A stretch of DNA of 43,630 nt from Shigella phage Buco. Position numbers and translations under genes: made by a program. Below the pieces are notes generated by a model. That model saw only the letters and a program-made list of their open reading frames with translations, made no database searches and had not been told where the DNA came from. Within the stretch, counting starts at the first letter, position 1. Every line of letters begins with the position of its first letter. The stretch lies in the sequence record MK562503; one strand, given 5' to 3'. Below, piece by piece: positions 1 through 7,910 of this stretch.

Positions 1-127
1 CCCGGGATATCCCGGGTTGACTTATCTGTTTTCGATTAAACACTAAGAAATAATCTCTTGTAGAATAGCTACTTAGAACCACTTGATAAAATACTTGAAA
101 AATAAGTTTGCAATCCCTGTAGTGGGA
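1..127. repeat. Direct terminal repeat, left copy; begins with a perfect 16-bp palindrome cccgggatatcccggg
   Basis: Bases 1..127 are identical to 43504..43630 (read directly from the sequence). The right copy is cut by the window edge, so the true repeat may be longer. Confidence 0.85.
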
Positions 128-7720: not shown

Positions 7721-7910
7721 GAAAGAACCGGGCCTTACATTGGTCGGTCGTAAACTGTATCGTGGGGTGTTCGGGAATTTATATACGGTTAATAGTTTTG
7801 GTGTAGTTTGCGTTCAGACAGAGGGCTCAGAAAAGTGGGAGCCCTCCCACTACAGCTTAAAGGGTTTTAATGATGCTGTAGAAAAAGGGTATCTCAAAGA
7901 GGAGAACTAA
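7713..7910 (+). CDS. Hypothetical protein (65 aa)
   Basis: ORF-track entry between primase and helicase. Confidence 0.45.
   Translation: MFKKEPGLTLVGRKLYRGVFGNLYTVNSFGVVCVQTEGSEKWEPSHYSLKGFNDAVEKGYLKEEN

Follow-up and report, generated by a model that had tools for sequence, protein, structure and literature searches.

In the Autographivirales, genome ends are broadly found between the late and the early genes. In T7, the concatemer junction has an inverted repeat and an ATCTGTT class II pause signal beside the terminal repeat; a hairpin intermediate at this junction, and the class II pause site, were reportedly described by Chung, Nardone and Hinkle in 1990 and by Lyakhov et al. in 1997. 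The T7 sequence starts with TCTCAC, with CCCCCATAGGGGG 26 nt in, and its ATCTGTT (checked in the sequence) starts right after the 160-bp terminal repeat.

Six relatives of the phage considered here have annotated direct terminal repeats (DTRs) and were aligned: Cronobacter phage Peggy (271 bp), the Klebsiella Drulisvirus phages Dlv622 (278-279 bp), KpV48 (192 bp), fHe-Kpn01 (222 bp), and AttikonH4 (297 bp), and IMGVR_2974624307 (282 bp). For fHe-Kpn01 the termini, which are blunt, were determined by restriction analysis, ligation and Sanger sequencing, as well as by PhageTerm (PMC7291057); the Dlv622 ends are PhageTerm calls (PMC8381472). All six annotated repeats (192-297 bp) start with CCTCACCCTSARCG..., are preceded by ...AAATTTRTTAKACTCAC..., and end 0-3 nt before CTTGCYTMTTTTG. 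In the four Drulisvirus phages and IMGVR_2974624307 the repeat opens with one shared word, CCTCACCCT, which follows one shared A+T-rich motif; the Peggy record, which has this junction as well, ends ...ACCCAAAATTTATTATATTCACGCGAGGCCGTC, and its annotated repeat begins CCTCACCCTCAACGCCGCCC.

Terminal repeats can also be products of assembly. The maximum k of the SPAdes assembler is 127. SPAdes phage contigs are reported to carry “127 bp artificial overlaps” (PMC5923482), and “127 bp artefactual DTRs” have been described as well, including one in a phage whose real 5.7-kb DTR had been collapsed (PMC9331655). Library preparation, for its part, is documented to yield artefactual chimeric reads at palindromes and inverted repeats (PMC10908179).

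Shigella phage Buco (formerly HRP29; MK562503) belongs, by exact protein look-ups, to the genus Bucovirus in the subfamily Slopekvirinae, and is KP34-like. The window analyzed here is the whole stretch of DNA in its record, 43,630 bp; the genome is also present in IMG/VR, as IMGVR_UViG_2974508359_000001. The phage collection used for comparison dates from August 2025, and MK562503 itself is not among its records. The large Buco ORFs are all on the + strand and follow the phiKMV/KP34 order: DNA polymerase, a mid-genome RNA polymerase, structural genes, the T7-type terminase small and large subunits (TerS and TerL; 36586-38891, + strand, Pfam PF11123 and PF22530), and a tailspike gene ending at 42230. 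The closest record is that of Peggy, which matches half of the late region at about 75% nucleotide identity; Peggy's TerL is 84% and its TerS 75% identical to that of Buco. Given this similarity of TerL and its T7-type nuclease domain, the Buco terminase should share the cleavage specificity of Peggy's; the conserved ends described below are where it would be expected to cut. Exact-protein look-ups of TerL, and of the GIY-YIG protein discussed below, found no other assemblies or contigs. Rfam gave no match at the gathering threshold over the whole window, nor any in searches of 1-1200 and 42200-43630 at E<=1.

A sequence-only reading of this window had drawn attention to its ends, which it described as identical over 127 bp, with a repeat opening on a 16-bp self-complementary palindrome. 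Both observations are correct. The longest exact prefix of the window that is also its suffix is 127 bp (1-127 and 43504-43630, 127/127 identical), a length of exact repeat that is beyond chance; the flanks diverge at once, with ...GAAGGTTAG preceding the right copy and ACCTAATATG following the left one. The first 16 nt, CCCGGGATATCCCGGG, are their own reverse complement. The same sequence at both ends of a record is what a DTR would produce, and equally what an assembly overlap would produce, so the identity of the ends cannot by itself separate the two.

In its likeness to the SPAdes overlap the Buco repeat is close: it is exact, direct, at both ends, and 127 bp long, and removing one copy leaves a circle. 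The left copy (1-127) is read here as the k-mer overlap left by a de Bruijn graph in a circularized assembly, and not as a physical end of the genome, on the basis of its exact identity, length, GC content, lack of the family's end motifs, and behavior in a toy graph (below); the right copy (43504-43630) is then the sole one in true upstream context. From the number 127 alone, we infer that the assembly was most probably made by SPAdes at k = 127. The published case of such an overlap in a phage with a collapsed longer DTR (PMC9331655) parallels Buco. The difference is that the opening point in Buco is not arbitrary, but the first base of the longest palindrome in the genome.

In its likeness to the terminal repeats of the relatives, on the other hand, the 127-bp block shares none of the elements of the T7/KP34-like (Slopekvirinae) DTR and concatemer junction. 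None of the end motifs of the group was present when searched for within 1-140, and 1-127 has no short-repeat array of the kind typical of the relatives' DTRs. The block is 36% GC, compared with 62-70% for the DTRs of the six relatives, so that it lacks both the end motifs and the G+C-rich body of a repeat of this group. Neither the 127-mer nor the final 2.6 kb had a homologue among GenBank phages when both window ends were run through megablast and blastn. A sigma-70 scan found a single weak site in the 127-mer (TAAACA-18-TAGAAT), which is at the background rate; calling this an early promoter region would therefore draw only on its position and A+T content.

A full homologue of the DTR and concatemer junction is found elsewhere, at 42355-42733. 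Each of the group's end motifs occurs once in the window, and all are internal (42389, 42413, and 42720). The conserved A+T-rich motif (CCCAAAATTTATTATATTCAC...; 42355-42388, + strand, by alignment with the six relatives) immediately precedes the first base of the DTR, on that side of the concatemer junction which is unique sequence; in Buco this junction reads ...ACCCAAAATTTATTATATTCACGAGAGGCAGTC followed immediately by CCTCACCCTCAGCGCCGCCC, with the boundary between 42388 and 42389. The surrounding stretch, 42331-42424, is matched by 227 phage records. The inverted repeat CCCCCATAGGGG, unique in the window, is at 42413-42424, 25 nt inside the predicted left end; where T7 starts with TCTCAC, the Buco site starts with CCTCAC. 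At the other side, 42718-42733 (+ strand) holds the T-rich motif ACGTTGCCTCTTTTGC, also unique in the window, which matches the (N0-3)CTTGCYTMTTTTG found directly after the relatives' DTRs; GTTGCCTCTTTTG has its single occurrence in the window here, at 42720. Between them, 42389-42717 is a block of 329 bp with 68% GC and short repeats of 10-bp period, in keeping with the G+C-rich DTRs of the relatives. The start, internal, and post-end motifs are in the right order and at the right spacing, and the block is single-copy in the assembly, as expected if it had been collapsed.

From the motif alignment with the six relatives and T7, this block (42389-42717, + strand) is predicted to be the direct terminal repeat, present in one copy in the assembly. 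The physical ends of Buco DNA would then be at 42389 (left) and about 42717 (right, ±3 nt), a prediction by homology with relatives of about 75% genome identity or less. A complete KP34-like junction and terminal-repeat structure has apparently been sitting unrecognized inside the record; its first two elements, the A+T-rich pre-junction motif and the CCTCAC start, are shared with T7 itself. The feature first pointed out is almost certainly an artefact of assembly, with the true terminal repeat, which is of a familiar type, lying elsewhere; the combined reading, that the 127-bp repeat is an assembly overlap and that the real DTR runs from 42389 to about 42717, is given a probability of roughly 0.88. 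The exact end overlap has the length of an assembler k value, and the unit, once circularized, places the genome ends of the group internally.

The sequence-only reading had preferred a T7-type terminal repeat, with a terminase or nicking enzyme cutting at the left edge of the palindrome and duplication during concatemer resolution as in T7. The mechanism has a genuine precedent there, in the inverted repeat and pause signal of the T7 concatemer junction. This deserves weighing: a T7-type terminase is encoded, the group packages its DNA with short DTRs, the repeat lies in a non-coding region between late and early genes, and a break at the longest palindrome is far from random. However, the family's end motifs, which even T7 shares, lie at 42389, 42413, and 42720, not at 1 or 127, and the A+T-rich 127-mer is unlike any of the relatives' DTRs. 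A genuine 127-bp DTR would also leave a complete DTR-like block with its junction motifs internal, between the tailspike and GIY-YIG genes; its length would equal the SPAdes maximum k by coincidence; and the graph model described below gives both length and start without any biology. The T7-type reading is accordingly very improbable and is not retained, with the family's end motifs elsewhere (42389 and about 42717), the wrong composition, and a length that is that of the largest SPAdes k; nor is there support for the palindrome at the boundary as a terminase or nicking site, the conserved end motifs lying at those same two positions.

The alternative offered at the time, that the repeat is a wrap-around artefact of a circularly permuted genome, was half right. 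A contig from a permuted, headful-packaged genome would likewise close on itself with an overlap of length k, and the artefact part, an overlap of k-mer length, stands. The permuted part does not: the terminase is T7-type (PF22530), with a TerL 84% identical to that of a phage with a DTR, and the fixed-end motifs of the DTR-packaging relatives are all present and intact. Headful packaging would go with a headful terminase and no fixed-end motifs, neither of which describes Buco, and permutation is regarded as extremely improbable.

An assembly overlap accounts for the length of the repeat, but the position of the break calls for an explanation of its own. With one overlap copy removed, the unit genome of 43,503 bp has just one perfect palindrome of 16 bp (CCCGGGATATCCCGGG, 43504-43519, also 1-16), one of 14 bp, three of 12 bp, and 23 of 10 bp. 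The chance that a contig broken at random would start precisely with the longest of these is about 1/43,503 (about 2e-5), a coincidence that calls for an explanation. The palindrome, the probable cause of the contig break, is carried by none of the relatives (megablast and blastn against GenBank phages, and IMG/VR), and with its flank it matched the window alone in IMG/VR. It lies in the long non-coding stretch from the last late gene to the first conserved early genes, a counterpoint to the artefact reading, this being where genome ends might be looked for. A protelomerase-type hairpin telomere was considered for the palindrome and dropped, in view of the T7/KP34-like organization and T7-type terminase. 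The second-longest palindrome, CCCGGATATCCGGG (33153-33166), is almost the same word as CCCGGGATATCCCGGG and is within the ORF of a 1279-aa internal virion protein; this likeness could be due to chance or to a shared protein-binding site.

It might be supposed that the overlap is an artefact whose start at the palindrome is pure coincidence, or the result of manual editing. An isolated cycle can in principle be opened anywhere, and sibling records from the same submission have been re-oriented by hand to start at rIIA. Coincidence has the probability just given against it, and anyone re-orienting the record by hand would not normally leave a duplicate of 127 bp in place; this explanation too is given very little weight.

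A toy de Bruijn graph offers a more specific account. The linear virion was modeled, with k = 127, by opening the unit genome at 42389 and adding a repeat of 329 bp; by itself, this model gave a closed cycle with no tips or branches, in which the real ends leave no trace. On adding a single fold-back chimera, rc(Y)-P-Y (P being the palindrome and Y what follows it), the graph had exactly one branching node, the 127-mer at 1-127, and the unitig leaving and returning to this node was 43,630 bp, identical to the window base for base. At k = 99 or 77 the overlap became 99 or 77 bp, and the start was still at the palindrome.

The proposed course of events would be as follows. A DTR longer than k would collapse to one copy, leaving the graph circular and the real ends lost. 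Low-level fold-back chimeric reads at the palindrome would attach a path rc(Y)-P-Y to the true one, X-P-Y; the earliest k-mer common to both would be that starting with the first base of P. The 127-mer at P, as the only branching node, would then be where the loop contig both begins and ends. This holds generally: the first k-mer common to the chimera and the true path lies at the onset of perfect self-complementarity, so the break would be expected on the first base of the palindrome, as is the case. The graph model is sufficient for the length of the repeat and for its start point, with the fold-back reads entering as a supposition of the model; a fold-back origin of the break point is rated as moderately probable.

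The position of the boundary relative to a longer hairpin bears on this point. On the + strand, 43497-43536 has the form of a terminator-like RNA hairpin (terminator scan and RNA fold), with a 13-pair stem including three G.U pairs, the loop AUAU, and the tail AUCUGUUUUC. The stem (43497-43526) begins 1 nt past the stop codon of the GIY-YIG ORF, and the palindrome 7 nt after it. The RNA fold has a predicted energy of -32.5 kcal/mol (z = -3.6 vs. shuffles). In DNA folds, the seven outer stem pairs form on the + strand only, and their 5′ half (43497-43503) is outside the 127-bp repeat. The left boundary of the repeat thus coincides with the end of perfect DNA self-complementarity, and cuts through the longer + strand RNA stem starting at 43497. 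A boundary that follows DNA self-complementarity rather than the RNA element fits a graph, and is not expected of a biological unit.

As to what the hairpin itself might do, it resembles an intrinsic (rho-independent) terminator in having, downstream of a stop codon, a G+C-rich coding-strand stem-loop with a U-rich tail; it differs in that its U tract is interrupted (AUCUGUUUUC) and in its lack of conservation in the relatives. The 13-pair stem, the tail (ATCTGTTTTC), and the position 1 nt after the stop codon are what a terminator would show, but the background of the scan is about one site per region, and confidence is moderate for this reason. The palindrome is the core of this terminator-like + strand hairpin, whose likeliest role would be to terminate the GIY-YIG transcript or to stabilize its 3′ end; the chances of a terminator role seem about even. 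A similar hairpin, GCCGGGGTTATCCCGGC (42273-42291), which comes about 40 nt past the stop codon of the tailspike gene and shares 84% sequence identity with the region of the palindrome, is a candidate for a late terminator, with the true right-end junction a short way downstream.

Directly after the 43497-43526 hairpin is a copy of the T7 heptamer ATCTGTT (24-30, equivalent to 43527-43533). Buco therefore has the sequence of the T7 class II pause site as well, but about 1.1 kb from the predicted end, where in T7 it adjoins the terminal repeat. As a packaging signal it was rejected: ATCTGTT occurs 3 times in the window, compared with 4.5 expected, and this copy is far from the predicted ends.

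The ORF preceding the palindrome (43167-43496, + strand) encodes 109 aa and matches the GIY-YIG domain (Pfam PF01541) with E = 9.4e-5, at 23.1 bits vs. a cut-off of 22.6. It has no match in Peggy, the closest relative, and only distant phage homologues were found for the protein. By synteny offset, the Buco interval holding the ORF is about 450 bp longer than the corresponding one in Peggy. Possibly, the ORF is a mobile nuclease cassette. A distant GIY-YIG homologue is found near the right end of the record of Pectobacterium phage Peat1. Several short sequences recur around the Buco ORF: TCCCGGGTT is present in two tandem copies just before its start codon (43130-43149) and once after its stop codon (43513-43521), and TAGCCCGGG or its complement occurs three times in or after it (43205, 43363, and 43501). 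CCCGGG occurs 30 times in the unit genome.

A further possibility is that the overlap is an artefact, but one whose break marks a real site-specific discontinuity that enriches fold-backs: a localized nick like those reported in phiKMV-like phages, a cut or hairpin made by the GIY-YIG protein, or snap-back in vivo. The ORF ends 7 nt upstream of the palindrome, and what a fold-back needs for priming is precisely a strand end there. Localized nicks are known to give extra PhageTerm peaks in relatives, for example at nt 7873 in fHe-Kpn01 (PMC7291057). On the other side, random shearing at the usual high phage coverage suffices for rare fold-back chimeras (PMC10908179), the ORF encodes just a 109-aa catalytic-domain protein barely over the Pfam cut-off, in which no DNA-binding domain was detected, and the palindrome is in none of the relatives. 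A real discontinuity is therefore considered unlikely; if there were one, the assembly break would be reporting a biological event, and not only an accident of library preparation.

On the preferred reading, of a k-mer overlap and a collapsed DTR, the genome can be re-opened at 42389. The terminal repeat then comes first, followed by about 450 bp of non-coding sequence, the GIY-YIG ORF, and, about 1.1 kb in from the predicted left end, the palindrome; beyond it lie an A+T-rich stretch and then the conserved early region. A non-coding element of the early region, 332-504, is 80-85% conserved in phages of other genera and of another subfamily: Kayfunavirus ASO2B and ST38, Klebsiella phage Hope, and E. 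coli phage phiHAO78-1. It contains a small hairpin (about 345-364) whose pairing is kept by compensatory changes at two pairs, and has no Rfam match.

Buco was deposited as what looks like a raw contig, unlike its siblings MK562502 and MK562504 (L030, L031; Shigella phage KPS64, Enterobacteria phage CHB7), which have been re-oriented to the rIIA start. Having been re-oriented in this way, the siblings are uninformative on whether 127-bp overlaps were left untrimmed. On this analysis, 127 bp are artefactually duplicated in the Buco record, its opening point is some 1.1 kb off the true left end, and of a real DTR of about 329 bp it retains a single copy. The error passes into catalogues in which “DTR” contigs are counted as evidence for termini. 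More generally, a perfect palindrome can set where a graph assembler opens a circular contig, giving the boundary a deceptively “biological” look.

Buco itself represents the type species of Bucovirus; there is a RefSeq record for it, and its capsid structures have been solved. A genome with fixed ends is predicted for this phage, whose direct terminal repeat of about 329 bp has been collapsed to one internal copy; the virion DNA would be about 43,832 bp long, vs. 43,630 bp in the record. The combination YCTCAC...CCCCCATAGGGG is conserved from T7 to the KP34-like phages, and is usable for re-orienting genomes without reads.
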